From a virus: 52,634 nucleotides of DNA. The position numbers and the translations under genes are program-made. Within the stretch, counting starts at the first letter, position 1. Every line of letters begins with the position of its first letter. This document shows positions 1 through 52,634 of the stretch, piece by piece. The notes beneath the pieces are model-generated. The model was not told where the DNA came from. It saw nothing but the letters and a program-made list of their open reading frames with translations, and did no database searches. The stretch lies in the IMG/VR virus record IMGVR_UViG_3300029487_000014. One strand, given 5' to 3'.

Positions 1-99
1 CTGCATTCTGTTTGCCAACATGCTCAAGCACTTCAAAAGCACAGACTTTGTCAGCATTAAACTTGCTGAAATCCATGTAGTTTTTAGCAAGGTCAGCAA
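1..99. repeat. Terminal overlap: bases 1-99 are identical to 52536-52634, closing a circular genome of about 52,535 bp
   Basis: Direct comparison of the two window ends (ctgcattctgtttgccaacatgctcaagc...tagcaaggtcagcaa). The overlap lies inside one ORF and joins it in frame. Confidence 0.95.
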
Positions 100-385
100 C
101 ATAGAAATGAGCCCAAGGTACATCCGCATACTTTTCAGCAGCTTGTTGAATTGTTTTTTCGCGAATATCAATACCAATATACTCTTTCTGCTTAAATTTG
201 TTTCGGTATAACACCTCAAGTAAATTAGCAGCCCCGCAGCCAAAATCAACGATAGATTCACCTATCTTGGCTTCTTTCAAAATGTGAGTCCAACGCAAAT
301 AATGCGCAAACTGGTCTCTGTGGAATACATGACGCTCAAACGCCTGGTCTGGTCTGAGGTCTGTTGTGTTATAAACTTTTGCCAT
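1..385 (-). CDS. Class I SAM-dependent methyltransferase, N-terminal part (ATG at 385; continues across the circular junction into 52099-52535; about 273 aa in total)
   Basis: Manual translation: MAKVYNTTDLRPDQAFERHVF...ESIVDFGCGAANLLEVL (SAM motif I), YIGIDI (motif II). It is in frame with ORF 52099..52611 (385-76=309, divisible by 3). Confidence 0.75.
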   Translation of the reverse strand, partial: MAKVYNTTDLRPDQAFERHVFHRDQFAHYLRWTHILKEAKIGESIVDFGCGAANLLEVLYRNKFKQKEYIGIDIREKTIQQAAEKYADVPWAHFYVADLAKNYMDFSKFNADKVCAFEVLEHVGKQNA

Positions 386-620: not shown

Positions 621-914
621 TTATTTGTCATTAAAAATTTCTTTATGTTCTTCTAAGTAGTCATTCATAGAGCCCATATAAGCAATCGCATCAAGAAGAT
701 TATCCTCTTTGTGCGCATAAGCCTCACGCGATAACTTAAGAGCTATCATAGCTCTATACATACCAGCGGTTGTTATTTGCTGGTCTTTAGGCGACATCAA
801 GTTATAAAGAGCTGCCGCTCTTTCCATTGATGCCTTAAAAGGCCCGTACTGACGCTCTTTTTCCTCTGAGCGCTCATTCACAATCTGATTTGCTTGTTCT
901 AATATATTACTCAT
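621..914 (-). CDS. Hypothetical helical phage protein (DUF6378-like, recalled pattern only)
   Basis: 97-aa ORF. ERQYGPF...MYRAMIALKLSR...HKEDNLLDAIAY resembles small proteins seen in phage nucleotide-metabolism modules. Confidence 0.5.
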   Translation of the reverse strand: MSNILEQANQIVNERSEEKERQYGPFKASMERAAALYNLMSPKDQQITTAGMYRAMIALKLSREAYAHKEDNLLDAIAYMGSMNDYLEEHKEIFNDK

Positions 915-1351: not shown

Positions 1352-1726
1352 TTATTGCTCTTCTGGATATTCTATTTGCAGTAATTCTTTGCAAAATTGA
1401 ATAACTTGCTCATAATTATTATATGCAGTTTGAGTAATAATTCTCCGCTGAAGTATCGTCAGTTTATTTTTAATAATAAACTTATTTATGTTAAGAGAGA
1501 GAGCTTTATCGTTGCATCTTCTTTTGTCTCCTAGCTGAATAGCTAGTTGAGCATAATGAATACATTTCTTTATATCCTGCACTCCATTTTTAGCTTTATA
1601 CCTACTAATATATTTTATAATGCATCCTTGTATAAAAGAGCATCTTAAAGCAGTTATAAGCTCTATTGGTTGCATAGCCATATCTTTATAATGGTTACCA
1701 CCTATTTGTACATCTGTTGCTTTCAT
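1352..1726 (-). CDS. DUF3310-family phage protein
   Basis: IGGNHYKDMAMQPIELI...IKYISRYKAKNGVQDIKKCIHY matches the GGxHY...QPxE...KYxxRxxxK signature. Confidence 0.65.
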   Translation of the reverse strand: MKATDVQIGGNHYKDMAMQPIELITALRCSFIQGCIIKYISRYKAKNGVQDIKKCIHYAQLAIQLGDKRRCNDKALSLNINKFIIKNKLTILQRRIITQTAYNNYEQVIQFCKELLQIEYPEEQ

Positions 1727-13659: not shown

Positions 13660-14202
13660 CTATACGAATTTTTCCCAGTCCAACTTGATTGCTTTTCCGA
13701 TTGCGTCAGCAGTCCATCTGCAGAAAATCATGCCATCATACCCATCCGGGTCATTGGCCACTTTATGAGCATATCTCAAGCATGCGGCTTCATCTTTCAG
13801 AGGGTCTGGATAGAAATCTGCATAAGCCATGTTAGCCACATAGGTAACATCACCTGTTGTCACTTTACCAGGAATGCTCAATCCTAAGCTTTCCATAGAC
13901 TTTTTGACTTGACTTGTAGTCCAAGAATGCTGTTGGCCATTAGCATTTACCATCATTTTACTTACGTGCTCTTGCAGAGCATCTGTAAAGTGATAGCCGT
14001 GCTTTTTGACATACTCAGAATATCCTTTAGCAGACATGAGAGCATTTGCTGTTTGCTCATAAGGCAAATCGAATTTGACCTTATGCTCACCATGAGGAGT
14101 AGCTATTCTGCTTTCTACTACTACGTCTTCTTCATCTTCGTGCTCCTTATCATGGTCGCATGTATAATGCTTTACTATGATACATTTTAATCTGTGTCCC
14201 AT
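13660..14202 (-). CDS. Hypothetical protein
   Basis: 180-aa ORF with a His/Asp/Glu-rich N-terminus. Confidence 0.6.
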   Translation of the reverse strand: MGHRLKCIIVKHYTCDHDKEHEDEEDVVVESRIATPHGEHKVKFDLPYEQTANALMSAKGYSEYVKKHGYHFTDALQEHVSKMMVNANGQQHSWTTSQVKKSMESLGLSIPGKVTTGDVTYVANMAYADFYPDPLKDEAACLRYAHKVANDPDGYDGMIFCRWTADAIGKAIKLDWEKFV

Positions 14203-14207
14203 AACTT

Positions 14208-14702
14208 TTAGCTTTCAAATTTTTTGATGAAATTCTCCATCATTTCCTGCTGCTTTTTCATGAGTTCTTCCATGCCACTAATGGACTTCTCAATCTTGCC
14301 GAAACGCTGTTCTGTTTCTTGCTTTTCCTTATACATAGGATTAAGCTCTGCAAGCAATAAAGGAGCTTTGTCAATGATATTTTGAGCTTTAGAAGCAGAA
14401 GCCAAAACCTGTTCAGCATTTGCCTTTTGAGCTTCAACTTCGCTCGTCAATCCAGATTTTTCTGTTGACAGAACAAGATGCCCGGCATAGGTAACTGAAT
14501 GGCTTTCAGGAATAGCGTAAGTTGCCATTTTTCCATTGGCCTCTATAGTAACATCTACTACCATCTCTGTCTTGCCAGTCTTCTGGTTCATTTCTAATCG
14601 AGGAAACGATACCTGAGTGGCTTTGCCTTGAATAAGGCTAAATTCCTGTGTATCAAGAATGTATACAGGATAATTCTGCTTTATATCTTTGAATAACAAC
14701 AT
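14208..14702 (-). CDS. Hypothetical protein with a coiled-coil C-terminus
   Basis: 164-aa ORF. Confidence 0.6.
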   Translation of the reverse strand: MLLFKDIKQNYPVYILDTQEFSLIQGKATQVSFPRLEMNQKTGKTEMVVDVTIEANGKMATYAIPESHSVTYAGHLVLSTEKSGLTSEVEAQKANAEQVLASASKAQNIIDKAPLLLAELNPMYKEKQETEQRFGKIEKSISGMEELMKKQQEMMENFIKKFES

Positions 14703-14727
14703 ATAGCTTATCTTTTTGAATTGTTAA

Positions 14728-14775
14728 TAAAAAAGAGGGCACTCAGAGAAGTATAAAACTTCCCTAAGTACCCTC
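14728..14775 (-). terminator. Strong rho-independent terminator ending the structural/fibre operon
   Basis: Minus sense: GAGGGTACTTAGGGAAGT-loop-ACTTCTCTGAGTGCCCTC followed by TTTTTT. 18-bp stem including G:U pairs. Confidence 0.8.
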
Positions 14776-14783
14776 AATTTCAA

Positions 14784-15203
14784 TTAGGCTGCTGGTTCAG
14801 CTGGAATAGAAACGCTCAATGAGCTATTGATAGCATAGCAGTTGGATTTTCCGCATACTATCTTAATAAGTCCTTGAGTCATTCCAAGCTGGTTGATAGT
14901 AACAGATGTAGGAAGTGTCGTTCTACCTTGGAATGCAACCACAAACCGTTCATTGATTGCCTGTGTCTCAGCTTGGCATTTGCAAGCATTCGGAGTAGTA
15001 ATCGTGATTGTTGCTACAATAGGCACGAATACGGTAGTTCCGTTAAGAACAGGCGTTTCATTCCTATAAGTAACAGTCGCAAACGGTTGATTGGTAGAAG
15101 TTGCACAGACACAACGACACAATTTCTCCTTAAATGTGGCCAAGAACGAAACTTGATTTGCCACAGGAGCAGCGGCTAAGCCTACTGGCGATAATGTAAC
15201 CAT
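14784..15203 (-). CDS. Hypothetical Cys-containing beta-rich protein (GC-rich island)
   Basis: 139 aa with CRCVC, CKC and VCGKSNC motifs. Last gene before the terminator. Confidence 0.6.
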   Translation of the reverse strand: MVTLSPVGLAAAPVANQVSFLATFKEKLCRCVCATSTNQPFATVTYRNETPVLNGTTVFVPIVATITITTPNACKCQAETQAINERFVVAFQGRTTLPTSVTINQLGMTQGLIKIVCGKSNCYAINSSLSVSIPAEPAA

Positions 15204-15229
15204 AATCTTTACAGTTTAATGGTTAAACA

Positions 15230-16117
15230 TTACTGGCCACAGCCGCATCCGCAGCTATTACCGCCACAGCCACAATTGCCAAGCCTGTTGAAACGCTCGT
15301 TAATCAGGCTGTTCTGGCGCTCCTGAGAAAGCTCGAATTTAAGGTCCTGAATTTTCAGAGCCTGTTCGTCCTTCCAGTGGTTGTTCAGAGTGTCGATGAT
15401 ACGCTGAGTGTTGTCCTGACCAGCGCGAAGAATATCGCACTTATCCTGCTGAGCTTGGAAAGCAGTAGACGAGAAGCCCTGCGTAATCGCAAAGCCAAGG
15501 TCACGCTGACCATTGCGGAGTTCGGCAGTGTCTTTACAATTCTGGAGGAACAGGTCACCGCGGAAATCAGCAATCTGGCGCTGAGTCTGGCAGCAGCAGT
15601 TCTGCAGAGCCTGGATAACATTGCAGTCACCGAGGTTAACGGCATTGATAACGCGCTCAGCAGAGAAGCCAACCTGACCAGCAACTTGTTGGATAGCAGC
15701 CTGAACATCGCAGCAGCACTTCTGAAGAGTGTTGAAATCGATGTTAAGCGTCTGAGCCAGCTGGCTAAGAGCAAAGCCGTTGCCCTGGATGGCAGACTTA
15801 ATGCAATCAGCATTCTGGTTGTCCTGCAACTGAGTACGGATAGCATTGAGCTGAGCCTGAGTTTCGATACCCTGAGTAGCGGTACCTGCTCCTGCACCAT
15901 CCCCGCCAAAGCCGAAGCCTCCATTGCGGAACAGAGCCAGGAACATGAGGTAGGCAAACGGATTGTTCATCCAGTTGTTCATACCTCCACCCATCATGGC
16001 GGCCATCGGGCCCCAATCATCTCTACGGTTATTACCGTTTGCCAAGATGGCAGCTGCGAGCGCGTTGTCGTTGTTATCGCGGTCGCAACAATAGATTTTT
16101 TCTACAGTTTCTCCCAT
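15230..16117 (-). CDS. Hypothetical Cys-cluster / Gly-rich protein (GC-rich island)
   Basis: 295 aa. Contains YCCDRD, GGGMNNWMNNPFAYLMFLALFRNGGFGFGGDGAGAG, QKCCCDVQ, QNCCCQTQ and the C-terminal GNCGCGGNSCGCGCGQ. Confidence 0.65.
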   Translation of the reverse strand: MGETVEKIYCCDRDNNDNALAAAILANGNNRRDDWGPMAAMMGGGMNNWMNNPFAYLMFLALFRNGGFGFGGDGAGAGTATQGIETQAQLNAIRTQLQDNQNADCIKSAIQGNGFALSQLAQTLNIDFNTLQKCCCDVQAAIQQVAGQVGFSAERVINAVNLGDCNVIQALQNCCCQTQRQIADFRGDLFLQNCKDTAELRNGQRDLGFAITQGFSSTAFQAQQDKCDILRAGQDNTQRIIDTLNNHWKDEQALKIQDLKFELSQERQNSLINERFNRLGNCGCGGNSCGCGCGQ

Positions 16118-16176
16118 AATTTTGAAGAATTTAGAAATCTGTTAAACAATAAAGTTAATTATATACAGACACCTCT

Positions 16177-16512
16177 CTAGAAAAAACTTTTAGCCAGACG
16201 TTGCATTATATACGTAGATTGATAAAAGATTGCAAATATCATCCTCATCATATTCGCAGTCATACCCGTAAAGAGGAAGCAGATTATCACCACGTAAAGG
16301 ACCAGTTCGGCCAGGGCGTTCTTGAACTTGCCGAAAGAAAAGTTCTCGCAGCACGTGAAACTCACCCCGTCCGCCTTCATACCCGCATAGATGTTGAAGG
16401 CAAAGGCCAACACCAATGCCAGCAAGAATCCCTTCGTCGGGGTGTAATACGCCAGCACCGGACTGATGGCTGATGCCGACACCATGCGCAAATGTTCCCA
16501 ATCCGTTCTCAT
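16177..16512 (-). CDS. Membrane protein, possible second holin-like protein
   Basis: 111 aa with FLLALVLAFAFNIYAGMKADG...LAELVLYVVIICFLFTG. Loosely resembles the core of holin 13185..13658. Confidence 0.5.
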   Translation of the reverse strand: MRTDWEHLRMVSASAISPVLAYYTPTKGFLLALVLAFAFNIYAGMKADGVSFTCCENFSFGKFKNALAELVLYVVIICFLFTGMTANMMRMIFAIFYQSTYIMQRLAKSFF

Positions 16513-16529
16513 ATACTATTCCTTTTCCA

Positions 16530-17138
16530 TCATTCCGCAGGCGGGGTATAAACCCCAGCCGTAAACCTATAATTATAAAGTTTGCAGGATGTCCATTCAT
16601 CACCGGTATAATTCAGTACGGCAGAATGTAATTCAATCCTGTCCCCTCTGTAATGCTTCGTCCACGTAAGGTATACGATACTGGAGGAAACCTTTACCGA
16701 AATGGGATACAGCTCCGTCTTCTTGTAAATGCTCGTCCCGTACCATCCGATGACGGGGCGACTCGCGAGCACCGCTGCGAACAGGTCGGAAGGCTTGCCC
16801 ACCCTACTCAGCACAATGTCCACGCTCATACCGTCCGTCAACGCCGTATTCACGTAATAAGGCCCCGCCACGTACTCTTTCCCGTTAAACACGATGCTCT
16901 CCGCGTCCGTGGGGAAGAATAACGCCTGCGGGTTCGCACCCGTCAGCGACAAAGCCTGCGCCCGCGTCTTGCTCGCATACACCTTTAGTTTTTGCCCTAC
17001 TGCCGTGCTTGCCAATGGAATAACTCCGGAGGGAATATCGGCAGTATTACCGTTCACTTGCAAGCTACCTTCGTCCGGTAAATTCTCTCGTACATCGTCA
17101 ATGATGATTTCTGAATCTATTTCAAAATCCTTTCTCAT
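16530..17138 (-). CDS. Tail fibre-related protein (N-terminus paralogous to 17142..18572)
   Basis: GQKLKVYASKTRAQALSLTGANPQALFFPTDAESIVFNGKEY aligns with GQKLRVAVTKTSAQGKAAQSATPNLMSFSTDENSVWFNGKKY. Confidence 0.6.
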   Translation of the reverse strand: MRKDFEIDSEIIIDDVRENLPDEGSLQVNGNTADIPSGVIPLASTAVGQKLKVYASKTRAQALSLTGANPQALFFPTDAESIVFNGKEYVAGPYYVNTALTDGMSVDIVLSRVGKPSDLFAAVLASRPVIGWYGTSIYKKTELYPISVKVSSSIVYLTWTKHYRGDRIELHSAVLNYTGDEWTSCKLYNYRFTAGVYTPPAE

Positions 17139-17141
17139 AGT

Positions 17142-18572
17142 TTATTCGATTGTAATTCCTGCTGAATCTGAAGGTTTAACAATTCTTACACTAAACTGCG
17201 CATTATCCCAGTTGTCTCCACTACTTGCAGGGACACATTTTGCAATGACAATCCAGTCATTATTACCTGGATGAAGATATTTTACTATTACATTCCCAGA
17301 ATCAATTATACACACTGCCGATTTTTGAGATTGTATATTATTATGACCAGTTACTAATATTAGTTTTCCTGCATCAATGGCATTTCTAAAAGTAGACGGT
17401 GCCCCTAAAGCTGTTTTAAGTTGTTCTTGTGTAGGATTACTGTTTAGAGCGGTAAGTTCTCCTATGTTATAATATGAAATTACATCGGCTTTCTTTGCAT
17501 ACGTGTTGCTCGCATCCGTTTTCGATAGCTTTTCATCTTGCAATTTCTTACCCATCGCAGCCGAAAGGGGTTTGTTCGTTTCACTGGAAGTAAGATTATT
17601 GACTATTTCATCCTTAGCAACTACTACCCCAAGCTGTTCCCAGATTTCTTCAAAACTTGTATCCGTATCAGCTTTCTTCGCATAAGTGTTGCTTGCATCA
17701 CTCTTGGTAAGGTATGGAGTCAAGTCCACCGTACCCCCCAACGCATCCCAGTTGTCGTCGTTATGGTCGCTTGACGAAGTCGCTGTCACACAAACCACGT
17801 TTGTCCCTGCTGGGTATTTCTTGCCACCAAGCGTGAACTCATTCGTAACATTCCATACATCACCCACTTTCGCATCCGTCAAGGACAACACGTCGGATAT
17901 GTTTGTCTTAGTACCTTTCACCTTATACGGGGAACCAAGCCCGTTGATTCTGTCATTCAACGCTTTACCCTGTGCCGCTGATAAGGCTTTTGAAGTGTCA
18001 GTAGTGGTAAGGTTATTCACTACGTCTGTTTTCGCTAACTTTTCATCCTGCAATTTCTTACCCATTGCAGCCGAAAGAGCCTTGTTAGTCTCAGTAGAGG
18101 TCAGAGTATTCCTGATATCATCAACTATTAAATGAGATATAGTGGTCAACCCTGTCACTTTATTACTAGATACAGTAATAGTAAGTTTCTTTATTGACCT
18201 TGAATCTGAGCTTGGTACATAGAGTTGGAAAGTGTCATCCCCATCTTCATATTTTACTATCGTATTTCCAGAAATGGTATCTATGAAAAGTACACCTTTA
18301 TGGGCTAAATCATAAAGTTCAGAAGATTTACTGACATTCAAAGCAGACAATACCTGTTCTGCTGTTGAGTTAGTATTCAGGCTTGAAACATTATTAAATT
18401 TATGTACCCCATACTTCTTCCCATTAAACCACACACTGTTTTCATCGGTACTAAAACTCATTAGGTTTGGGGTAGCACTCTGTGCTGCCTTACCTTGTGC
18501 GGAAGTTTTTGTTACCGCTACTCTTAATTTTTGTCCGTTTGCTGCCATAATTTTATTTTTTAAGTTATTCAA
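17142..18572 (-). CDS. Tail fibre protein with internal repeats
   Basis: Repeated LTS(T/S)ETNK(A/P)LSAAMGKKLQDEKL(A/S)KTD and ASNTYAKKAD units. 476 aa. Confidence 0.75.
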   Translation of the reverse strand: MNNLKNKIMAANGQKLRVAVTKTSAQGKAAQSATPNLMSFSTDENSVWFNGKKYGVHKFNNVSSLNTNSTAEQVLSALNVSKSSELYDLAHKGVLFIDTISGNTIVKYEDGDDTFQLYVPSSDSRSIKKLTITVSSNKVTGLTTISHLIVDDIRNTLTSTETNKALSAAMGKKLQDEKLAKTDVVNNLTTTDTSKALSAAQGKALNDRINGLGSPYKVKGTKTNISDVLSLTDAKVGDVWNVTNEFTLGGKKYPAGTNVVCVTATSSSDHNDDNWDALGGTVDLTPYLTKSDASNTYAKKADTDTSFEEIWEQLGVVVAKDEIVNNLTSSETNKPLSAAMGKKLQDEKLSKTDASNTYAKKADVISYYNIGELTALNSNPTQEQLKTALGAPSTFRNAIDAGKLILVTGHNNIQSQKSAVCIIDSGNVIVKYLHPGNNDWIVIAKCVPASSGDNWDNAQFSVRIVKPSDSAGITIE

Positions 18573-20046
18573 TAATTATACTTTTTCCACCACCTCCGCC
18601 TTGTGTTTGGTGACGGAATATGATATAGTTGTTTCCAGATTGTTTGATTTCCCAACCTTCATAAGTTTCACTCATCCCATAGGCAAATGAAATGTAATCA
18701 TCCGAGCTGCCCGTCACGACATACGTCCTTTCATGGGCATCATCGCGCACGACCATGATTTCTGCTCCCCTTATCTTCGCCCACACTTCTTCCGTCAGCC
18801 CGAAAGCATCCAAATCCCCCTGCGTGCGCCCGCTGCCGATTTTCTTCTGAAGGACACCGAAGTCGAAAGCCGCGTATTCCGACGCCGACAAAGCCTCCTC
18901 CAGCACATCCTGCAATGGCCTGTCCGCCTCCTCGTCGAGCACACCGTCATAGCCGCCCACGCCCTTCACGTAAACCCGACCGTCATCCATCACCTCCAAG
19001 GCGTTGCGCCTGTCACTCTCCGACGTGCCTATCCCTATGCTGTGGCGCGTACCCGTATTGCTTACGTTATAGCACCCTTCGGCATGTTCACAGTCGTTTT
19101 CAACTATGGTACGAAGACCCTCGGCATGCCCGTAGTGCCCCTCCACGTCAGTACCTTTGCCCTCCGCGTGGCTCGCGTCACCGTTTGCGCTGCAACCTTG
19201 GCCTTCCGCGTGCGCGTAATCACCGGAAACGGTGTTATTCTCATAATCGTTGAAAATCTCGCCGCCGGTCACGCCATCCGCCGACCGGCCCACGCCGCCA
19301 CCGAGTCTTTCCCAAACGCCCCACGCGCCCTTCGCACACTTGCGCCAAAGCACGGCGTATTCCTCGCCCGAACGCGTCAACCTTTTTCCCGAATCGGCCG
19401 GCTTGAAGTATCCCCGCACCGACTGAAGCCATGTGTCCGTGTTATACCCTACCGGGATATTCTCCACCGTGAAAGGAGTACCCGTGATATCACCCCTGAA
19501 ATATCCCGCCTTCGCAATGCCCTCCGCGCCGGAAGTATGAAGCCCGTCCAGCAACGTGTTCATTTCTTCTTCGCTCGTCATGCTCCCCAACCATTTGTGC
19601 GGGTCGTGAAGCGCGTCGCTGTCCTCTGAAGTACCCTGAAGACGTTTTATAAGTTTAGTTTGCAAATTGATTGAAAGAGTAGTAATAGCTCGCTGGCTAA
19701 TAGGAAACTGTACAGAGGTACCTAACTCTTGTAAGCACTCATATAATTTAATGCTTTTCCAGCTATTATTCATATCATTGTATAATATACATATGCCATA
19801 ATAGCGTATTGTAATACTACTAAAATTGCTATATACGCCAGGTTTATTAGCAAAATAAAATACAGGACCATCAGGCACACCGGGATTAGTAGCAGGAGTA
19901 GCAATTCCAGCAAATGTAGAATTTTCTCCTACAGAACTTACTATATTATTAAGTACATTCTGGAGAAGTTGTCCTGTTATTTCTTGATTTCCATTAGTCT
20001 TTATGATATTAGCGATTGCTGCTTTTAAAGTACTCCAATTTGCCAT
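18565..20046 (-). CDS. Tail fibre / receptor-binding protein; chimeric, with an AT-rich N-terminus and a GC-rich distal domain
   Basis: Repeated (A/S/G/E)HAEG motifs: GDYAHAEGQGCSANGDASHAEGKGTDVEGHYGHAEGLRTIVENDCEHAEG. 493 aa. Confidence 0.75.
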   Translation of the reverse strand: MANWSTLKAAIANIIKTNGNQEITGQLLQNVLNNIVSSVGENSTFAGIATPATNPGVPDGPVFYFANKPGVYSNFSSITIRYYGICILYNDMNNSWKSIKLYECLQELGTSVQFPISQRAITTLSINLQTKLIKRLQGTSEDSDALHDPHKWLGSMTSEEEMNTLLDGLHTSGAEGIAKAGYFRGDITGTPFTVENIPVGYNTDTWLQSVRGYFKPADSGKRLTRSGEEYAVLWRKCAKGAWGVWERLGGGVGRSADGVTGGEIFNDYENNTVSGDYAHAEGQGCSANGDASHAEGKGTDVEGHYGHAEGLRTIVENDCEHAEGCYNVSNTGTRHSIGIGTSESDRRNALEVMDDGRVYVKGVGGYDGVLDEEADRPLQDVLEEALSASEYAAFDFGVLQKKIGSGRTQGDLDAFGLTEEVWAKIRGAEIMVVRDDAHERTYVVTGSSDDYISFAYGMSETYEGWEIKQSGNNYIIFRHQTQGGGGGKSIIIE

Positions 20047-36928: not shown

Positions 36929-39652
36929 CTAGTTTCTCAATAATATTTTCTTCCTTCCAGCTTTTCTACTATGCATTTCTACTACTCCAGTTAATGCATC
37001 TGGTGCATCATCATGAGCAGCCCTTCGCTTATTATCTTTACGATAAGTTGTAATAGCATTATAGAATTCACGCCATTTTTTATCCCAATTTTCTGGAAAC
37101 GCTACATCTGAGTTAACAAGAGCTGAATTTGAAAAAATACGAGCAGCTTTATTTTTTGTCTGCGTAAAAGTATTTATGGCTGTTTTGAAATTATGCAAAG
37201 TAGCTCTTGTAATGCGCTTTACATTTCTAGCAAACTGCCTACCACCATTATTGGACTCTATCAGACATTCTGTTATACTATTTTCTGTGAGCATTTTAGC
37301 CAACATTACTTCAGTTTTTTCCATGGGCAGTTGTGTATATAGCACATCAATTACATATAGCATTTCTGGAGTATTTATAAAGCAAATTGCACATAAATAA
37401 TCAGAGCCAGTATCAGCTGTATCAACGTAACACCATCTTTGATTAGCTTTAGAGCCTGATGGCAATTCTATATTTTGATATGTTCTAAACTCGTGATACA
37501 TAAGGCCCTCAGTAGGAATTGGATTTTGCATATACTGCGTCTCAAATACTACCGGGTTAATCTCTCGTAGTTTATATAGCTCCTCAAGATTGTGCTTCAT
37601 TGGCCAAAGAGCATATTCTTCTCCTGTCTCAGGGTCTGTTTGTATAACTGGAAGTGATAAAACAGTCCATGTATCTGGCTCTATTTCTTGTAAATAACCA
37701 CAGAGGTCATGCTCGTGTAATCTTTGCATTATAATAATGATAGGTGTCCTGCGCGAGTTAACACGATTACGTATTGTATTTTCGAAACGCTGATTTATGC
37801 GCTCTCGTATAAGGTCGGATGCTGCATCGTCGGCTTTCAGAGGGTCATCAATCATAATTGCGCCTTGAAATATATTAGTTTTAGCATCTATCATTTTAAG
37901 CATTTCATTTGTATGGTCATCAAATACAAATATATCATTGCCTCCATCCATTTTATCTATTTCTTCATCTACTGCTCCAGCACCAAAGCCTGTAACCTGA
38001 CCTTGTGTTGACACTGCATAGAGTTCTCCGCCTGCTTTAGTTTTCCATCTCTTAGCTGACCCTTTCTCAGATGCAAGAGCTGAATTAGGAAAGAGCGTTT
38101 TATATAATTCTTCGCTCATTATATTACGCACAGTATCTGAATTATCATTTACAAGTATATCTGAATAAGATAGATGCAGAAATCTGCATCGCGGGTTTAA
38201 GGCGAAGCACCATGATATAAACGACTTAATAACTAATTCTGTATTGTGCGATACGAGCCCATTGGCTATAAAATTTTTATCGCCAGATACTTCAATATGA
38301 ACTAATTCATGCTTTCCTACTTCTTCTATACTAACAATTTCATCAGGATAGAAATCTTCAGCCCAATATCTCGTAAGGTTATCAGGAAAAATTTCCACTA
38401 ATTCTCTAAATGTATCTTCTGACATATTCCTATTTGGCCCAACTGATTTATACCCTAAATCAAAGTGTATCATTTTGTAAAGGCCTTCATTCTTTATTAT
38501 AGAATACGGGTATGTGCATGTACGTTCTATTTTAGAAGGCTGTAAAATGTATTCTTTTGCTTTATCTGCTTTTCCATAAAAATTCAAATGTGGATATAAT
38601 TTTTGAGAATATCTTCTTGATATTGCAACATTCCATATACCAGCTTTTTCATTTTCATAAAATCCTAAAGTTGATGGAATTTTCATAGTAGATAACAGAT
38701 ATTGAATATCCTCAGCAAGTCCTTTGTTTGCTAGGCCTATAGACAACTGACCATTCTTTTTTATAGTACCATCTGTTGCTATCATCATTCCTAAAAACAC
38801 ATATTTTTGTCGCATAGAAGTACTAAATATTCCTAATGGGATTCTTTTAGTATAAGAGCTATTTCCAACTAATTTATGCTTTATTAAAATGTTATTTATT
38901 ACGCCATTAGTTCCGCCTAATATGGTATATTGACAATCTGCGGTACAAGAATAATGTTTGGCCTCACCTCCGAGTTCATTAACAGCCTTTATAACAGCAT
39001 TTACCGCTAATTTATCTATGTTAGTAAATCCTAATTTACCAGATTTTGTACAACATCCGTCAAACAGCATCATTGATATTAGTATAATCTCCGCGTCTGA
39101 TAATGTTTCGACGCCGTCTAACTCTTTTTTTAATGCAAATATCCTATCTCCAATTTTAAGCCTATTAGATTTTACATACCCGAACGGTGTTCTCCAAGGA
39201 TGGTCAATACTGCATACAACTGACCGACCTGACCTCATAGTAATTTCATAGCAGTCTTTATATGCCGGCTCAGTAGCAATAACACTATTAACAACCGCTC
39301 TACCATCTTTGAATGATAGCACTTTATCTCCTGGCAGTATATCAGCTATTTTTTTTCGCTCACCTGTAGCAAGCGTAATAAGGGTATCTTTACTAACGCA
39401 TTTCCCGTATCTGGGAGCTATATTAATAATAAGACGTGTAATTTTACCATCCACGACATCTTGCAAGGCTTCAAATATCTTTTTGTGGTGCTTGGCAACG
39501 ATAAATGAGCGCTTATATTGAGCCTTAAACATTAGTTTAGTATACTTTTCAAATGACGTAAGAGCTTCAAGACGTAACATTTCTACAGGATTTACGGCTC
39601 CGGGCTTTGTTGCATCTAATGCTATTTCTTGCATTTCTTTAAGTGACTTCAT
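36929..39652 (-). CDS. terL: Terminase large subunit interrupted by an intein
   Basis: Extein motifs: the Walker A APRYGK|T is split by the intein, Walker B is IMIDDPLK, and the nuclease motifs are CYVDTADTGSDY, ESNNGG and AAHDDAPDAL. Confidence 0.9.
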   Translation of the reverse strand: MKSLKEMQEIALDATKPGAVNPVEMLRLEALTSFEKYTKLMFKAQYKRSFIVAKHHKKIFEALQDVVDGKITRLIINIAPRYGKCVSKDTLITLATGERKKIADILPGDKVLSFKDGRAVVNSVIATEPAYKDCYEITMRSGRSVVCSIDHPWRTPFGYVKSNRLKIGDRIFALKKELDGVETLSDAEIILISMMLFDGCCTKSGKLGFTNIDKLAVNAVIKAVNELGGEAKHYSCTADCQYTILGGTNGVINNILIKHKLVGNSSYTKRIPLGIFSTSMRQKYVFLGMMIATDGTIKKNGQLSIGLANKGLAEDIQYLLSTMKIPSTLGFYENEKAGIWNVAISRRYSQKLYPHLNFYGKADKAKEYILQPSKIERTCTYPYSIIKNEGLYKMIHFDLGYKSVGPNRNMSEDTFRELVEIFPDNLTRYWAEDFYPDEIVSIEEVGKHELVHIEVSGDKNFIANGLVSHNTELVIKSFISWCFALNPRCRFLHLSYSDILVNDNSDTVRNIMSEELYKTLFPNSALASEKGSAKRWKTKAGGELYAVSTQGQVTGFGAGAVDEEIDKMDGGNDIFVFDDHTNEMLKMIDAKTNIFQGAIMIDDPLKADDAASDLIRERINQRFENTIRNRVNSRRTPIIIIMQRLHEHDLCGYLQEIEPDTWTVLSLPVIQTDPETGEEYALWPMKHNLEELYKLREINPVVFETQYMQNPIPTEGLMYHEFRTYQNIELPSGSKANQRWCYVDTADTGSDYLCAICFINTPEMLYVIDVLYTQLPMEKTEVMLAKMLTENSITECLIESNNGGRQFARNVKRITRATLHNFKTAINTFTQTKNKAARIFSNSALVNSDVAFPENWDKKWREFYNAITTYRKDNKRRAAHDDAPDALTGVVEMHSRKAGRKKILLRN
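38243..39400 (-). mobile_element. Intein (386 aa) with a LAGLIDADG homing-endonuclease domain, inserted in the TerL P-loop
   Basis: It starts at Cys85 (GK/CVSKDTLITL) and ends in VSHN/T. Block B is SIDH. The LAGLIDADG motifs are ILISMMLFDGCC and FLGMMIATDGTI. The TGC codon is at 39398-39400 and the AAT (Asn) codon at 38243-38245. Confidence 0.9.
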
Positions 39653-47553: not shown

Positions 47554-47587
47554 AAGGCAGACTACAGAAAAGTAGTCTGCCTTTTTT
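47554..47587. terminator. Bidirectional terminator between the convergent gene blocks
   Basis: AAGGCAGACTAC-AGAAAA-GTAGTCTGCCTT followed by a T-run. 12-bp perfect stem. Confidence 0.85.
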
Positions 47588-48308
47588 ACATTAAGCTTTC
47601 ATCTTCTTCTATAACAAGAGAATAACCAACTCCTCGTATAGTTTCTATAGCTACTCGGTTATCCATTTTAAGCATATTTCGCAGCATACATATATGAACA
47701 TCTAAGCTACGTTTATTAAAGTAGTTATCATCAGTCCATACTTGTTGCATAAGTATTTTCTTGGGTAATGTTTCGTTTTTATAGGCACATAATAAAGCAA
47801 GAACTTGGCTTTGTTTATTATTAAGCTGTGTTTTTACATTGCCTATAGTAAGAATTTTATCTACTGTATTAAACAGGTAATTGCCTATCTCATAAGATGG
47901 CTCTATACTTCTTACTCGCACACCACATCTTTTTAGAACGGCTTTTATTCTTCTTATAAGCTCCTCAATGTTATATGGTCTTATAACATAATCATCCGCA
48001 CCTTCATCAAATGCTTCAATTACATACTCATATCGGACCTTATCTGATACCATTATTACAGGTATTTTATCATCTGATTTGCGCAAAAATTTTAATGGCT
48101 TTAGCCTCATAGAGGCATCTGTTGTTTTATAATGACTTAATATGCATAAGTCATAATTCTTTTCTCTGATTTTGATTAGTATATCATCCTCAGTTGAGGT
48201 TATTACTTGAAAGCCATTATACACCAAATAATCTACCAGGATTTTACAGTCTTCATCTTGATAGATTAAAATTCTTGGCAATGCTAATTTAGTGTTATTA
48301 CTTTTCAT
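47586..48308 (-). CDS. OmpR/PhoB-family response-regulator-like protein lacking the phospho-acceptor Asp
   Basis: The receiver fold has ILIYQDED, then DLCILS (Ser58 where Asp is expected), VIMVS, and DDYVIRPY (Arg110 where Lys is expected). The winged-helix domain reads LDVHICMLRNMLK...IETIRGVGYSL. Confidence 0.8.
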   Translation of the reverse strand: MKSNNTKLALPRILIYQDEDCKILVDYLVYNGFQVITSTEDDILIKIREKNYDLCILSHYKTTDASMRLKPLKFLRKSDDKIPVIMVSDKVRYEYVIEAFDEGADDYVIRPYNIEELIRRIKAVLKRCGVRVRSIEPSYEIGNYLFNTVDKILTIGNVKTQLNNKQSQVLALLCAYKNETLPKKILMQQVWTDDNYFNKRSLDVHICMLRNMLKMDNRVAIETIRGVGYSLVIEEDESLM

Positions 48309-49355: not shown

Positions 49356-49719
49356 CTTCTTCCTTTTTAACCATTATTGTTTCTACTTTTTCTCCCTCTT
49401 CTGCTTGCTTTAATTCAACATAAGTCCTATGAAAAGCTTCGTCACCTATTCCTTTAATAAAAGTTCTAAGTGTAGAAGGATATTCGCTTGTATTTATAGT
49501 TTTATCGACTACTTTCGCGTAAAGAGCAGCAAGAGCTTTAGGTCCAAATACCTTTTTCTCCTGTAGTCTTTCGATGGGACCTCTTTTGAATTGAACACCA
49601 GGGTGCTCATTCATAATTTTTGTACGAGTTATATTTAACTCATTTATACAAGCCTCGATATTATTTTCAAACTGAGGCATTTGTATTACGTCAATTACTT
49701 TTAAGTTTGCTACTTTCAT
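49339..49719 (-). CDS. Hypothetical protein
   Basis: 126-aa ORF that overlaps the stop of the hydroxymethylase gene. Confidence 0.6.
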   Translation of the reverse strand: MKVANLKVIDVIQMPQFENNIEACINELNITRTKIMNEHPGVQFKRGPIERLQEKKVFGPKALAALYAKVVDKTINTSEYPSTLRTFIKGIGDEAFHRTYVELKQAEEGEKVETIMVKKEEDEKGA

Positions 49720-50402
49720 TTTTCAAGTTTTTTAAGTTGTTCTTTATAATACTTTTCTTTCATATCCCAGTGCCTTTCATATATATGAAGGTCATGAACA
49801 AAATGATAATATGTGCCTATAGGCAAACCAAGTTCATCAGCTACTAACTGTTGAAGCTTAGTCCAACAATACTGGTCATTACAAAAGCCATAAACCAAAT
49901 CATTGCTTCGCATGGTTACACACATATCAAGAGTTTCAATGCCTGGCTTAATATCAAAACCTACAGACAAAGTACAAGGAGTGTCATATTTATAATCATC
50001 CTTCTCTTTGCCGTCAAAGATTGTAAACCAAGCTTGACGAGTATCTTTGTTTTCTCTAAGTTGCTCAATACATTTTTCTAATTGATGATTACGACTCCAC
50101 TGCCATCCGTAATTAGAATTGACAAGATTATCTCCACCATGCATTTTATCCCACATAGGAGCATACTTTTTAATTTCAGCTACACTCCTATCTCCAGACA
50201 TATACCAGGCATATTCGCGTTCAGCGTATCGTTCGCTGAATTTACGCCATTTCGTTGTTATTATGCGCTGCTGAGGATTTAATAAATAAAAGCCAACATT
50301 GTAAACAGCCTTTGTTCCAACATTAGTTTCTACTCCTTGTCTTATAATAAAACTATATAGGTCCTCAAAAGCCCTAGTTGCGTTTTTATATACTATATTC
50401 AT
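49716..50402 (-). CDS. Thymidylate-synthase-fold pyrimidine hydroxymethylase, T4 gp42-like (probable dCMP hydroxymethylase)
   Basis: EREYAWYMS, NSNYGWQW, TPCTLS (Cys143) and MRSNDLVYGFCNDQYCW (Asp176 at the base-specificity position), plus HDLHIYERH. Close to my recollection of T4 gp42 (NSNYGW, NMRSNDVVFGFRNDYAWQ, SLHVYSRHF). Confidence 0.7.
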   Translation of the reverse strand: MNIVYKNATRAFEDLYSFIIRQGVETNVGTKAVYNVGFYLLNPQQRIITTKWRKFSERYAEREYAWYMSGDRSVAEIKKYAPMWDKMHGGDNLVNSNYGWQWSRNHQLEKCIEQLRENKDTRQAWFTIFDGKEKDDYKYDTPCTLSVGFDIKPGIETLDMCVTMRSNDLVYGFCNDQYCWTKLQQLVADELGLPIGTYYHFVHDLHIYERHWDMKEKYYKEQLKKLEK

Positions 50403-50626
50403 GCTTCTTCATATTCAAAGTTTAACACTAGAGTTGCACCATAATCATACCAGAGAACTTCTTCAAGCTCTTCTTTTGTATAGCAGTTATATCGGCACAT
50501 CTCAGCTTCTAAGTCAGCCGGACTATCTATTATAAGAGTATTTTCAGCTATCATTATCATATCACTTAACAAGTTTATTTGTATTGCTGTTGTAAACTCT
50601 AAACAAAAGCTCTTCAGCTTCATCAT
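50399..50626 (-). CDS. Hypothetical protein (the start may be at an internal Met near 50560)
   Basis: 75-aa ORF that overlaps the upstream gene by 65 nt. Confidence 0.4.
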   Translation of the reverse strand: MMKLKSFCLEFTTAIQINLLSDMIMIAENTLIIDSPADLEAEMCRYNCYTKEELEEVLWYDYGATLVLNFEYEEA

Positions 50627-51017
50627 TCATGGCTTTGCATATAGCCAATGCTTCCTCTATGGATAAATCTTTGAGCTCTTCATCATCGTCATTAAAAGCA
50701 ATTTCACCAGTTATTACTCTAATTTCAAATGAATTGGTTAAAGCAAATGTTTTAGCTGCGTCAAGCGCTTGTGCGCATATATAGTGCACGGCCTCCCAAT
50801 ATATGTATGATAAAGTATTTGAGCCATCCAGTATCTTGATATATAATTCTCTCAACTTTTCAGGCTTAAACATACCTTGCTCATCCATTCGCCTATATTC
50901 AGCAAGCCATCTTCCATAACCATTTGTTGCTCTAAACCTGTTAGCATAAACTGCTACAAATCTGAGAAACTGGTCTGTATAAATAACCTCTGGTATTTCT
51001 ACTGCTTTCTTTTTCAT
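50562..51017 (-). CDS. Hypothetical protein
   Basis: 151-aa ORF. Confidence 0.6.
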   Translation of the reverse strand: MKKKAVEIPEVIYTDQFLRFVAVYANRFRATNGYGRWLAEYRRMDEQGMFKPEKLRELYIKILDGSNTLSYIYWEAVHYICAQALDAAKTFALTNSFEIRVITGEIAFNDDDEELKDLSIEEALAICKAMNDEAEELLFRVYNSNTNKLVK

Positions 51018-51033
51018 TGCTTAAGATTTATAT

Positions 51034-51118
51034 ATTCTCGCGCGCTCTAGAGCCCATGCATTTTTCTGAATATATTTCTTTTGTTTCATACTTTGCATGC
51101 GATATTACGCGCGAGAAT
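51034..51118. promoter_or_regulatory. 11-bp inverted repeat ATTCTCGCGCG / CGCGCGAGAAT (51034-51044 / 51108-51118) that carries the GAGAAT core
   Basis: Read directly in the gap between the dUTPase-like gene and the next gene. Confidence 0.6.
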
Positions 51119-51137
51119 AAGGCATAAATCAATTCAT

Positions 51138-51632
51138 TTAATAACTTCCAGTCGAGCCCAGAGCTCCATCGCCACGCTCGGATGAACGGCTGAAAAGCTC
51201 TGACTCAGAAACTTCTTCAAGGCCTTCATACGATACAGGCACAAGAATAAATTGTGCTATTTTCATACCTGGCTTAATGTGGACTTTGGCTTTGCCGACA
51301 TTAACAACATGTATATGAATTTCACCTTGGTAATCTTCATCTACAATCTTGGCTCCGAGGATAACGATGCTTTCAAATGCTTCTGCTTTCGGTGTTCTAC
51401 CAGCTCCAAGGCAAGCCCATTTAGAAGTTACAACTCCTGATTTATCGGCCGCCATAAGCATATATCCTTCTGGAATTTCCATCTTAATACCTGATGGTAT
51501 CAAAACATCAGTTCCTGGGTTTACGATAAAGCCTTTGTTATTGCCAAAGTTAGGAACGAAAAAATCAATTCCTGCTGCTTTACCAGTCCCACGAGCAGGG
51601 GACTTTACATTTCTTATTTTTGCAAATTTCAT
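51138..51632 (-). CDS. Trimeric dUTPase-family nucleotide pyrophosphatase (divergent motif II)
   Basis: Motif I AAGIDF, motif III GAKIVDEDYQGEI, motif IV GMKIAQFIL, motif V RGDGALGSTG. Motif II reads ADKSG instead of (P/G)RSG. Confidence 0.75.
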   Translation of the reverse strand: MKFAKIRNVKSPARGTGKAAGIDFFVPNFGNNKGFIVNPGTDVLIPSGIKMEIPEGYMLMAADKSGVVTSKWACLGAGRTPKAEAFESIVILGAKIVDEDYQGEIHIHVVNVGKAKVHIKPGMKIAQFILVPVSYEGLEEVSESELFSRSSERGDGALGSTGSY

Positions 51633-51634
51633 GA

Positions 51635-52009
51635 CTACATCATTTTAACAAGTTCCTTAGCTGCTGTTTCTACAGCTCTAGCAAGTCTATGTTCAACTTC
51701 TGGACTTATAAGGCTGTAAACTCCTTCTTTTTCAAAAGCATCAGCCATGATAGCTCCAATTTTTGAAAGCTTAGGATTAGAAGCGTTAATGCCATGCTTA
51801 TCCATAAGTTCTTTATTGTACTCATACTTAATGCCTCCTTCTACAGGAATAAGCTTGGCTATTTCTGCATGAGTATTTGACTTTCTGCTCGTAGGAACAG
51901 TGATAATAATCTCCTGATTGGTTGTCATGCACATATCTGTGCACATTTCCATTACTTCATTGAAGTTGCGTTTAAACTCTCTTGGAGTTACTGAAATTAA
52001 ACTTTTCAT
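51635..52009 (-). CDS. Hypothetical protein
   Basis: 124-aa ORF between the methyltransferase and the dUTPase-like gene. Confidence 0.6.
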   Translation of the reverse strand: MKSLISVTPREFKRNFNEVMEMCTDMCMTTNQEIIITVPTSRKSNTHAEIAKLIPVEGGIKYEYNKELMDKHGINASNPKLSKIGAIMADAFEKEGVYSLISPEVEHRLARAVETAAKELVKMM

Positions 52010-52098
52010 AATGATGCCAAATTAGCAATTAAAATAGAATCTATTTGTGTTGCAAAAGTCATTGAGTTTGAATAAAGCTTCTTTTATCTTCATATCTG

Positions 52099-52634
52099 TT
52101 ACATTAAATCGTCATCGAATAAACTTGGCTGCTCAGTGGCTTTAGGAGCAACTTTTACATCTCCCGGCTTACGCTTTAATACCCAAAGAGTATTACGTGA
52201 AGCATCCGGGAACATAGGAGCCATGATATTGGCAATGAGGTTTGAGTCATAATACTCTTTAAGAGCATCAAACATTTTCTGTTGCCAATCGTTCATCAGT
52301 GGCTTATAGTCTTTAGCTGAAGCAAATGTACCGAACTTCTTTACTATGCTGAAATGCTTCAACAATATGCCTTCAAGCTCCCAATGGTCAAACTCTTGCA
52401 CATCAACTCCGCGACCATCACCTGAGTCATAAGTATGATTACCAGCTGCTCCTACAGATGGGTCATAGTTTGGAGTTGAAAGGTAATAAGTAGCGTTATT
52501 ATTGCCACAAGCCTTAAAGTTCTCCAAAAATGCATCTGCATTCTGTTTGCCAACATGCTCAAGCACTTCAAAAGCACAGACTTTGTCAGCATTAAACTTG
52601 CTGAAATCCATGTAGTTTTTAGCAAGGTCAGCAA
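52099..52634 (-). CDS. Class I SAM-dependent methyltransferase, C-terminal part (continuation of 1..385 across the junction)
   Basis: AFEVLEHV (post-motif II/III region). The ORF stays open upstream of the listed Met to the window edge and is in frame with 1..385. Confidence 0.75.
   Translation of the reverse strand, partial: ADLAKNYMDFSKFNADKVCAFEVLEHVGKQNADAFLENFKACGNNNATYYLSTPNYDPSVGAAGNHTYDSGDGRGVDVQEFDHWELEGILLKHFSIVKKFGTFASAKDYKPLMNDWQQKMFDALKEYYDSNLIANIMAPMFPDASRNTLWVLKRKPGDVKVAPKATEQPSLFDDDLM
52536..52634. repeat. Second copy of the 99-bp terminal overlap
   Basis: Identical to bases 1-99. Confidence 0.95.

Follow-up and report, generated by a model that had tools for sequence, protein, structure and literature searches.

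A candidate phage module for methylated cytosine hypermodification combining an Asp-type thymidylate synthase homologue with a Hen1-like methyltransferase

The virus record IMGVR_UViG_3300029487_000014 raises the question of whether one of its gene series, which combines a thymidylate synthase (TS) homologue with a methyltransferase dependent on S-adenosylmethionine (SAM), serves to replace cytosine in virion DNA. The whole stretch analyzed (the window) comprises 52,634 nucleotides. An earlier note, made from its sequence alone, had read the TS homologue as a deoxycytidine monophosphate (dCMP) hydroxymethylase and had suggested, in hedged terms, that the methyltransferase and a dUTPase-like enzyme act with it in one cytosine-hypermodification pathway. 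All of the open reading frames (ORFs) named there were found on the minus strand, where it had placed them. Our analysis puts the chances at about even that the region belongs to a conserved phage module replacing virion-DNA cytosine by a C5-modified, methylated derivative. The suggestion of a shared pathway gained support from comparative genomics, from the adjacency of the methyltransferase to TS homologues with Asp at the base-specificity position (Asp-type TS) in unrelated phages, and from the restriction-resistant DNA of the cultured Stenotrophomonas phage AXL3.

The window carries an exact direct terminal repeat of 99 nt (1-99 = 52536-52634), indicating a closed circle or complete contig of 52,535 bp, so that genes at either end wrap around. 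This applies to the methyltransferase: the ORF described previously (52099..52611), which runs off the window end, covers only the C-terminal two thirds of a gene crossing the contig junction, and the complete gene (52099..52634 joined to 100..385) encodes 273 amino acids (aa) with a normal SAM motif I, VDFGCG. The conserved set of genes extends past the region 49716-52634 described before, to a module of at least five genes that spans the contig junction and includes that of a DUF6378 protein. The overall gene content is that of a siphovirus-like phage (tape measure, portal, major head protein, and terminase), with replication genes for a family-A DNA polymerase, a primase-helicase, an SNF2 helicase, a PD-(D/E)XK exonuclease, and a gp2.5-like single-stranded DNA-binding protein (SSB). 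Megablast against 50,697 phage records revealed no nucleotide-level match to the window. At the protein level, the nearest cultured relatives were six Bacteroides fragilis phages, BF486P2 and its kin, with 70% identity in PolA and 61% in the TS homologue (BF486P2 WAX06796), and IMG/VR contained over 100 near-identical contigs, each about 50 kb long.

Family, residues, and predicted reaction of the TS homologue

The TS homologue matched the Pfam family Thymidylat_synt (PF00303) at 7.6e-25, with 88 bits against a cut-off of 24.3, and phrog_160 at 9.2e-46. In phmmer searches, its best relatives of solved structure were the CMP hydroxymethylase MilA (1.5e-19) and the dCMP hydroxymethylase of phage T4, gp42 (3.9e-17), whereas ThyA proteins reached only 2.5e-11 to 1e-6, in agreement with the closer resemblance to the T4 enzyme proposed earlier. 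Together with these family matches, motif numbering confirmed the TS-fold signatures and residue numbers that had been reported for this ORF: EREYAWY occupies residues 61-67 (Glu63), NSNYGWQW 95-102 (Tyr98), TPCTLS 141-146 (Cys143), MRSND 164-168, GFCND 172-176 (Asp176), and HIYERH 206-211. The key residues are Glu63, Trp84, Tyr98, Cys143-Thr144, Arg165-Ser166-x-Asp168, and Asp176. Cys143, Glu63, Tyr98, and Arg165-Ser166-Asn167-Asp168 aligned with Cys146, Glu58, Tyr94, and Arg166-Ser167-x-Asp169 of the E. coli enzyme, and the catalytic residues are all present.

Cytosine-modifying members of this family are separated from ordinary TS enzymes by positions 177 and 147 in E. coli numbering (Yang et al. 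2021, PMC8670742). Asp176 aligned with Asp179 of T4 gp42, the corresponding Asp of MilA, and Asn177 of the E. coli enzyme, with phmmer and three MAFFT alignments in accord, which bears out the earlier assignment of this residue to the specificity position. Thr144, directly after the catalytic Cys, aligned with Thr149 of T4 gp42, where the E. coli equivalent is His147. Both cytosine/uracil determinants of the window enzyme are of the T4 gp42 type, and the Asn177/His147 pair required in canonical ThyA is replaced by Asp176 and Thr144. The window enzyme and gp42 also have NSNYGW and GF-x-ND in common.

Only 17 residues follow HIYERH in the window enzyme, and marine orthologues end 3-6 residues past this motif. 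The C-terminal segment of ThyA, about 50 residues after HLYSNH that close over the folate for hydride transfer, is absent. The TS C-terminus is required for hydride transfer, and its loss leaves only partial reactions; truncation of the C-terminus reportedly abolishes hydride transfer. 5-Hydroxymethyl-dCMP (5hm-dCMP) is predicted, with good confidence, to be the product of the enzyme.

The gene content of BF486P2 bears on the same point. Beside the orthologue of the window enzyme, this phage encodes a second TS paralogue, which lacks the catalytic Glu and Trp in the alignment, and a carbamoyltransferase with Carbam_trans_N and Carbam_trans_C domains. In experiments, an enzyme of this family carbamoylated the hydroxyl of 5-hydroxymethylcytosine (5hmC), did not act on 5-methylcytosine (5mC), and was inactive on 5mdCTP (PMC8670742). 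Because the paralogue is without the catalytic Glu and the Trp and the carbamoyltransferase requires 5hmC, 5hm-dCMP in BF486P2 probably comes from the orthologue of the window enzyme, which would make this orthologue the hydroxymethylase of that phage. The 5hmC carbamoyltransferase system, which makes 5-carbamoyloxymethylcytosine (Yang et al. 2021, PMC8670742), resembles the window in pairing an Asp-type TS with an enzyme acting on the 5-CH2OH group and in its occurrence in sewage and gut phages; it differs in that the group predicted to be transferred in the window is methyl from SAM, not carbamoyl.

The BF486P2 paralogue is itself of note. WAX06791 (locus L001, 6168-6929) is annotated as a dCMP hydroxymethyltransferase and lies beside the carbamoyltransferase and an AAA_28 protein. 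It keeps the Cys, the Tyr, Arg-Ser-x-Asp, and the specificity Asp; Leu replaces the catalytic Glu, and the conserved Trp is absent. It may be a pseudo-enzyme or catalyze a different chemistry.

The methyltransferase and its synteny with Asp-type TS homologues

Hen1 methyltransferase domains were the only relatives of solved structure below 1e-5 in sequence searches with the methyltransferase (1.4e-7). Bacterial Hen1 and plant HEN1 share with it a class I SAM fold, an STPN(Y/K) motif, and an aligned E-x-x-E-H segment, which we take to be the metal-binding motif of Hen1. The family-invariant Glu118-x-x-Glu121-His122 aligned with the EVIEH segment of HEN1 (chain index 804, 807, and 808, corresponding to residues 796, 799, and 800), whose three residues are presumably the Mg2+ ligands holding the ribose hydroxyls. 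The likewise invariant His162 is a candidate fourth metal ligand; its region did not align with HEN1. By analogy, the window enzyme may share with Hen1 the metal-assisted O-methylation of a nucleotide hydroxyl. It differs from Hen1 in lacking a Pnkp partner, in having its own N-terminal HRDQFAHYLRW and C-terminal motifs, and in its setting among deoxynucleotide genes rather than RNA repair genes. In the window ORFs covered by Pfam, PHROG, or NCBIfam scans, we detected neither a Pnkp or RNA ligase partner nor dihydrofolate reductase (DHFR), ThyX, or dCMP deaminase.

The methyltransferase family comprised 137 representatives at E<=1e-30 in a library clustered at 50% identity, and one cluster at 90% identity contained 3,626 member sequences. 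A check for fusions among ten longer members revealed no second Pfam domain. Homologues were unusually conserved, with 70-75% identity across gut, marine, and other environmental phages, in which the neighboring proteins were less conserved (TS, 52-61%; dUTPase, 42-51%). Remote homologues (26-32% identity) were full length and carried the motifs HRD..H..RW, GCG, (F/Y)EV(L/I)EH, STP(N/C), AANH, YGxF, EY(Y/F)D, and APL(F/Y)P..RN.LW.

Synteny links this methyltransferase to the pathway. An Asp-type TS homologue lay within 5 kb at 16 of the 18 non-gut metagenomic loci carrying the methyltransferase, usually together with a DUF6378 gene, which is found just upstream of the methyltransferase gene in most lineages. 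The order methyltransferase, dUTPase-like gene, TS homologue was often translationally coupled, the three genes directly abutting or overlapping in marine contigs. Two further contigs showed the same arrangement, which in a freshwater phage takes the form DUF6378-methyltransferase-x-TS(Asp)-MazG. All five phage-database records with a remote homologue had their genes in the order methyltransferase, PRA-PH/MazG pyrophosphatase, Asp-type TS, and dCMP deaminase, with a Tmk-like kinase between pyrophosphatase and TS where such a kinase was annotated or detected. Both specificity positions were occupied by Asp and Thr in every TS homologue found beside the methyltransferase family (16/16).

The module of AXL3 (gp27-gp31), also present in Pseudoxanthomonas phage PW916, resembles that of the window in its full-length methyltransferase homologue, its adjacent NTP pyrophosphatase, and its TS with Asp and Thr. 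It differs from the window in several respects: its methyltransferase is 26% identical, its pyrophosphatase is of the PRA-PH/MazG type, it has a Tmk-like kinase, its TS belongs to a G(V/W)PYD clade with a longer C-terminus, and dCMP deaminase and ThyX are present. In a 192-kb phage contig (ENA ERZ28594376 scaffold_17; locus L086, 6557-10021), inspected in the 8-kb flanks of the methyltransferase, this gene (72% identical) lies between those of S-adenosylhomocysteine hydrolase and SAM synthetase, a SAM-cycle trio that fits bulk, stoichiometric methylation; these flanks contain no TS homologue.

Between its DUF3310 gene and dut, BF486P2 encodes the carbamoyltransferase, the AAA_28 kinase-like protein, and the second TS paralogue, where the window has the DUF6378 protein and the methyltransferase. 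None of the three (the Carbam_trans_N/Carbam_trans_C protein, the AAA_28 protein, and the paralogue) occurs in the window or in 80 close relatives. Trimeric dUTPase, AAA_28, PDDEXK_1, DUF2800, SNF2_N, and carbamoyltransferase domains are enriched in cytosine-modified sewage contigs (MetaGPA supplement, PMC8670742), and PRA-PH co-occurs with TS on such contigs (PMC8670742). The same gene content is seen in the window phage and its relatives.

DNA modification, proposed pathway, and competing explanations

AXL3 DNA resisted 35 of 37 restriction enzymes, including all those tested with G or C in the site, and was cut only by TasI (AATT) and Tru1I (TTAA), whose sites consist of A and T (PMC7504290). 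Its describers concluded that G or C bears a modification, the nature of which they left open, and assigned gp27-gp31 to dTMP synthesis (McCutcheon et al. 2020, PMC7504290). The TS homologue of AXL3 has Asp and Thr at the specificity positions, and ThyX is separately encoded. Of all the evidence, we regard that from AXL3 as making the strongest case that the module leads to non-canonical cytosine in DNA.

Restriction-site counts in the window revealed no avoidance of C/G-rich tetramers (observed/expected: CCGG, 62/56; CGCG, 67/43; GCGC, 82/85; GGCC, 89/95), and the same four sites were likewise not avoided in BF486P2, AXL3, and Xanthomonas phage XP12. The B. fragilis phage B40-8, which has an Asn-type ThyA and its own Dam methylase, strongly avoids CGCG (6/67), GGCC (4/53), and CTGCAG (0/10). 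Croceibacter phage P2559Y, which has the replication backbone of the window phage, a TS remnant only, and three DNA methyltransferases, avoids CCGG, CGCG, and GCGC. CTAG was halved in the window (50/100), and AATATT, TTTAAA, ATTAAT, CATATG, GATATC, and GAATTC were 3- to 10-fold under-represented. Several of these avoided A/T-rich hexamers are sites of the few enzymes that still cut 5hmC-containing T4 DNA. GATC and CTAG counts in BF486P2 were 7/115 and 0/77, and GATC reached 126/146 in B40-8 with its own Dam methylase. These counts are compatible with a cytosine modification that protects C-rich sites, and as a footprint they are suggestive only.

On the pathway that we propose, the dUTPase-like enzyme would hydrolyze dCTP (and dUTP) to the monophosphate, thereby feeding the pathway and keeping dCTP out of DNA; we infer this role from operon position, as a MazG/PRA-PH pyrophosphatase holds the same place beside Asp-type TS elsewhere. 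The TS homologue would use methylenetetrahydrofolate to place a one-carbon unit on C5 of dCMP, with hydration yielding 5hm-dCMP. A kinase, possibly the DUF3310 protein resembling T7 gp1.7, could then act together with the host nucleoside diphosphate kinase to form the triphosphate, which the phage family-A DNA polymerase would incorporate. The Hen1-like and probably metal-dependent methyltransferase, perhaps assisted by the DUF6378 protein, would methylate the modified base at the nucleotide or DNA level, most likely at the oxygen of the 5-CH2OH group to give 5-methoxymethylcytosine. O-methylation of the 5-hydroxymethyl group is the most economical reading, by analogy with Hen1, and another atom may be the one methylated.

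This scheme parallels the T4 pathway (gp56, gp42, gp1, and alpha/beta-glucosyltransferases) in its TS-fold enzyme with Asp, Thr after Cys, NSNYGW, and no ThyA tail, in a deoxynucleoside triphosphate pyrophosphatase and a candidate kinase encoded in the same gene series, and in a separate enzyme predicted to decorate the hydroxymethyl group. It is unlike the T4 pathway in that the TS homologue is 26% identical to gp42, the pyrophosphatase has the trimeric dUTPase fold and is not of the gp56 type, the kinase candidate is gp1.7-like rather than gp1-like, and no glycosyltransferase is present, so that a SAM methyltransferase would perform the decoration.

A broader reading is tentative: that genome-wide 5-methoxymethylcytosine is made by a widespread pathway through a new Hen1-like metal-dependent methyltransferase family (at least 137 clusters at 50% identity) together with DUF6378, in a range covering a prevalent Bacteroidota phage lineage of the human gut, marine and freshwater phages, and the cultured AXL3. 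Cytosine hypermodification based on Asp-type TS is already known; the variant with methyltransferase and DUF6378, and a methylated 5hmC product, appear to be undescribed. Known pathways of this kind attach sugars or carbamoyl, and no report of a SAM-methylated variant was found in the literature searched. Searches on DUF6378, on BF486P2, and for gut phage collections reporting DNA modification returned nothing relevant. Hypermodifications of phage DNA yield new nucleic-acid chemistry and new enzymes, and they account for resistance to restriction and CRISPR. DNA of the kind proposed here would have consequences for virome library preparation, for base-calling on nanopore data, and for engineering gut Bacteroides phages, and AXL3, as a cultured phage with unexplained restriction-resistant DNA, makes the hypothesis testable.

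Several observations weigh against the proposed methylated product. The Hen1 model TIGR04074 gave the methyltransferase 31.5 bits against an equivalog cut-off of 340, and the case for O-methylation is one of mechanistic analogy with Hen1, not of family membership. A fold search, as the earlier note had suggested, did yield a class I fold in the AlphaFold2 (AF2) model of the methyltransferase; the matches were to generic class I methyltransferases only, at a TM of about 0.5, and gave no clue to the substrate. At two jumbo-phage loci, the methyltransferase had no TS homologue within 8 kb. The window genome contains not a single GATC (0 observed, 103 expected), which means that the modification, whatever its nature, does not protect this site. 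On the supply side, dUTPase-like proteins of the subfamily found in the window also occur in phages without a TS homologue within 8 kb, dCTPase activity not being implied by the sequence, and BLASTP between the DUF3310 protein and gp1.7 was not significant (E = 3.4), the likeness being at the domain level only. A literature search found no report of a natural methoxymethyl-pyrimidine in DNA, and for the window phage and its close relatives we infer the chemistry of the product.

Some of these points are shared by an alternative that we consider rather unlikely, in which the dUTPase-like enzyme and the Asp-type TS produce plain 5hmC DNA, and the methyltransferase is otherwise engaged, for instance in Hen1-style 2'-O-methylation of RNA 3' ends or on a host molecule, its adjacency being inherited gene order. 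The closest solved relatives of the methyltransferase are indeed RNA-end 2'-O-methyltransferases, the two jumbo-phage loci have the enzyme without a nearby TS homologue, and many of the examined loci have one replication backbone (PolA, VapE-like primase, and SNF2 helicase), so that synteny could partly reflect ancestry. However, the linkage also holds in phages whose backbones and TS clade differ (AXL3, PW916, two Manatee Spring phages, and a freshwater phage of the YqaJ/SSB type) and also when the type of pyrophosphatase is swapped. The lack of a Pnkp or RNA ligase partner among the scanned window ORFs speaks against RNA-end methylation, the SAM-cycle genes flanking the jumbo-phage methyltransferase argue for bulk methylation, and BF486P2 fills the same slot with a carbamoyltransferase of a 5hmC-decorating family.

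A second alternative is that the TS homologue is a dCMP methylase as in XP12, giving 5mC DNA, with the methyltransferase unrelated or adding a second methyl group elsewhere. According to earlier literature as cited by Yang et al. 2021 (PMC8670742), an Asp at position 177 suffices to turn TS into a dCMP methylase. The XP12 enzyme likewise belongs to the TS family, has Asp at the specificity position, and acts on dCMP; the identity of the window enzyme to it (29%) is no lower than that to T4 gp42 (26%), and non-avoidance of C/G-rich sites would fit 5mC too. However, XP12 has a ThyA-like GLPYD, a long C-terminal region of ~75 residues, and adjacent DHFR and dCMP deaminase genes, whereas the window enzyme has GFCND and NSNYGW and hardly extends beyond HIYERH, and scans of the window ORFs detected no DHFR. 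The loss of hydride transfer on truncation of the TS C-terminus also counts against a methylase, as does the co-occurrence of the BF486P2 orthologue with a carbamoyltransferase that needs 5hmC and is inactive on 5mdCTP. We regard this alternative as improbable.

Ordinary thymidylate supply, in which the dUTPase would provide dUMP, the divergent TS would make dTMP, and the DNA would be canonical, is very improbable. Many homologues are publicly annotated as thymidylate synthase, and dut-thyA pairs are common in phages. Against this, the residues at both specificity positions are those of cytosine-type enzymes, cytosine hydroxymethylases head the solved relatives, and every NCBIfam thymidylate synthase equivalog score lies far under its cut-off (best, 76.6 bits against 327). 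A canonical phage ThyA, that of Bacteroides phage B40-8, has GVPFNIASY and the full C-terminus, and AXL3 has ThyX besides its Asp-type TS, and restriction-resistant DNA.

Bacimethrin biosynthesis couples C5-hydroxymethylation of cytosine to SAM-dependent O-methylation, with a TS-like hydroxymethylase reportedly paired with a SAM methyltransferase. A small-molecule pyrimidine antimetabolite made in this manner (CMP hydroxymethylase, glycosidase, and O-methyltransferase) has hardly any likelihood as the product here: MilA, the CMP hydroxymethylase of an antibiotic pathway, is the top solved relative of the TS homologue, but the mildiomycin and bacimethrin pathways (MilA/BcmA and BcmC) use ribonucleotides, release a free base, and methylate O2, whereas the window module lies in a DNA-precursor context with no recognizable glycosidase, profile scans of the window ORFs recognized no nucleoside hydrolase or ThiD-like kinase, such modules lie within phage replication and nucleotide operons beside deoxynucleoside triphosphate pyrophosphatases, deoxynucleoside monophosphate (dNMP) kinases, dCMP deaminases, and DNA polymerases, the dUTPase-like enzyme keeps its deoxyribose-selecting Tyr, and in AXL3 the DNA itself is modified.

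Other genes of the module and of the window

The features of the module are listed in Table 1.

Table 1. Positions of the genes of the candidate hypermodification module in the window
Feature	Position	Strand	Basis or remark
TS-family enzyme, predicted dCMP 5-hydroxymethylase, 228 aa	49716..50402	-	Pfam, PHROG, matches to PDB relatives, alignments
ORF of 75 aa, no assigned role	50399..50626	-	Variable slot
Conserved 151-aa protein between the dUTPase-like and TS-like genes	50562..51017	-	38% identical to BF486P2 WAX06794, same position
Trimeric dUTPase-family pyrophosphatase, 164 aa, candidate dCTPase/dUTPase supplying dCMP	51138..51632	-	Pfam and motifs
124-aa protein between the methyltransferase and dUTPase-like genes	51635..52009	-	Kept in close relatives only
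Hen1-like class I SAM methyltransferase, C-terminal part (Ala96 to stop)	52099..52634	-	FEVLEH (Glu118, Glu121, His122), STPNY, His162
Same methyltransferase, N-terminal part, start codon 385-383	1..385	-	Motif I VDFGCG, family-specific HRDQFAHYLRW
DUF6378 protein, 97 aa, predicted four-helix bundle, possibly a methyltransferase partner	621..914	-	Family and synteny
DUF3310 protein, 124 aa, candidate kinase for the modified dNMP	1352..1726	-	Pfam PF11753, phrog_236

The dUTPase-like protein matched Pfam PF00692 at 1.5e-16 (60.7 bits, cut-off 22), and its scores with the NCBIfam dut models (82.9 and 81.5) were under the cut-offs of 102.55 and 103. Motifs I, III, and V are present, the last with Leu for Phe, and the motif III Tyr responsible for deoxyribose selection is kept; motif II reads ADKSG and motif IV KIAQ, both with Lys in place of Arg. 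The protein belongs to the trimeric dUTPase fold family, with dUTP or dCTP as candidate substrates. The altered motif II described in the earlier note is thus present, but the Lys motifs are on their own no evidence of the altered nucleotide specificity that the note had considered, as they characterize an entire subfamily, members of which are also found where a functional TS partner is lacking. This Lys-type subfamily is rare, with 28 phage records at E<1e-10. As a marker of Asp-type TS it gave mixed results: one fecal phage has an Asp-type TS 4 kb away, none lies within 8 kb in Desulfovibrio phage 7757, a Lak megaphage, and a 462-kb phage, and Croceibacter phage P2559Y has a degenerate TS remnant only.

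Two of the Lys-type loci deserve mention in their own right. In P2559Y, a 174-aa ORF directly after the Lys-type dUTPase gene (P2559Y_0036; locus L163, 5441-5965) is an apparent decayed TS homologue. Its N-terminal TIFNTGFYITEP is similar to AVYNVGFYLLNP, the catalytic Cys is replaced, and it went undetected by hidden Markov model and tblastn searches; the phage has three conventional DNA methyltransferases instead. Phage DP SC_2_H4_2017 from human feces (locus L172, 7947-13019) arranges such components differently: its Lys-type dUTPase gene precedes a MazG-like ORF, behind which come two ORFs with weak likeness to TS and a TS homologue carrying FGND (Asp) and Cys-Ser, and no methyltransferase homologue is present.

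For the kinase step, the earlier note had recognized no dNMP kinase, and the DUF3310 protein now provides a candidate. It matched PF11753 at 4.3e-9 (36.7 bits, cut-off 24) and phrog_236, annotated as nucleotide kinase, at 7.8e-19; T7 gp1.7 matched the same PF11753 model at 4.5e-23 (81.5 bits). The window protein is shorter than the 196-aa gp1.7 and is without its N-terminal part. A Walker-A scan for a P-loop kinase gave a sole match, which fell in an ORF later identified as an amidase/endolysin.

The AF2 model of the DUF6378 protein had a pLDDT of 85. A role as a MazG-like dCTPase, considered on account of acidic motifs, was unsupported: the four-helix model had no significant fold match in the PDB, and its BFVD matches were other DUF6378 proteins only. 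A strongly hydrophobic, putatively coding ORF of 66 aa (MKQFIKNFLIGLCLAPIATVIACV...) lies at about 400-600 on the minus strand, between the DUF6378 and methyltransferase genes.

The 151-aa protein had no match in Pfam, PHROG, NCBIfam, or the PDB, and PDB sequence searches with the 151-aa, 124-aa, and DUF3310 proteins gave nothing meaningful. At the slot of the 75-aa ORF, some close relatives carry instead a 234-aa protein homologous to BF486P2 WAX06795.

Elsewhere in the window, the large terminase (36929-39652, minus strand; 907 aa) showed an unusual architecture, with the terminase domains at residues 471-901 preceded by an N-terminal extension of ~470 aa with weak helicase- and primase-like PHROG matches. 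An OmpR-type response regulator (47586-48308, minus strand), with a receiver domain and Trans_reg_C (phrog_731), is kept in nearly all close relatives; it has DLCILSH where the phospho-acceptor Asp is expected, suggesting an atypical, phosphorylation-independent receiver. The G+C content was 0.44-0.46 at 14000-20000, compared with about 0.31-0.40 elsewhere in the window, and this stretch, which covers tail and host-recognition genes, may be a mosaic segment of different origin.

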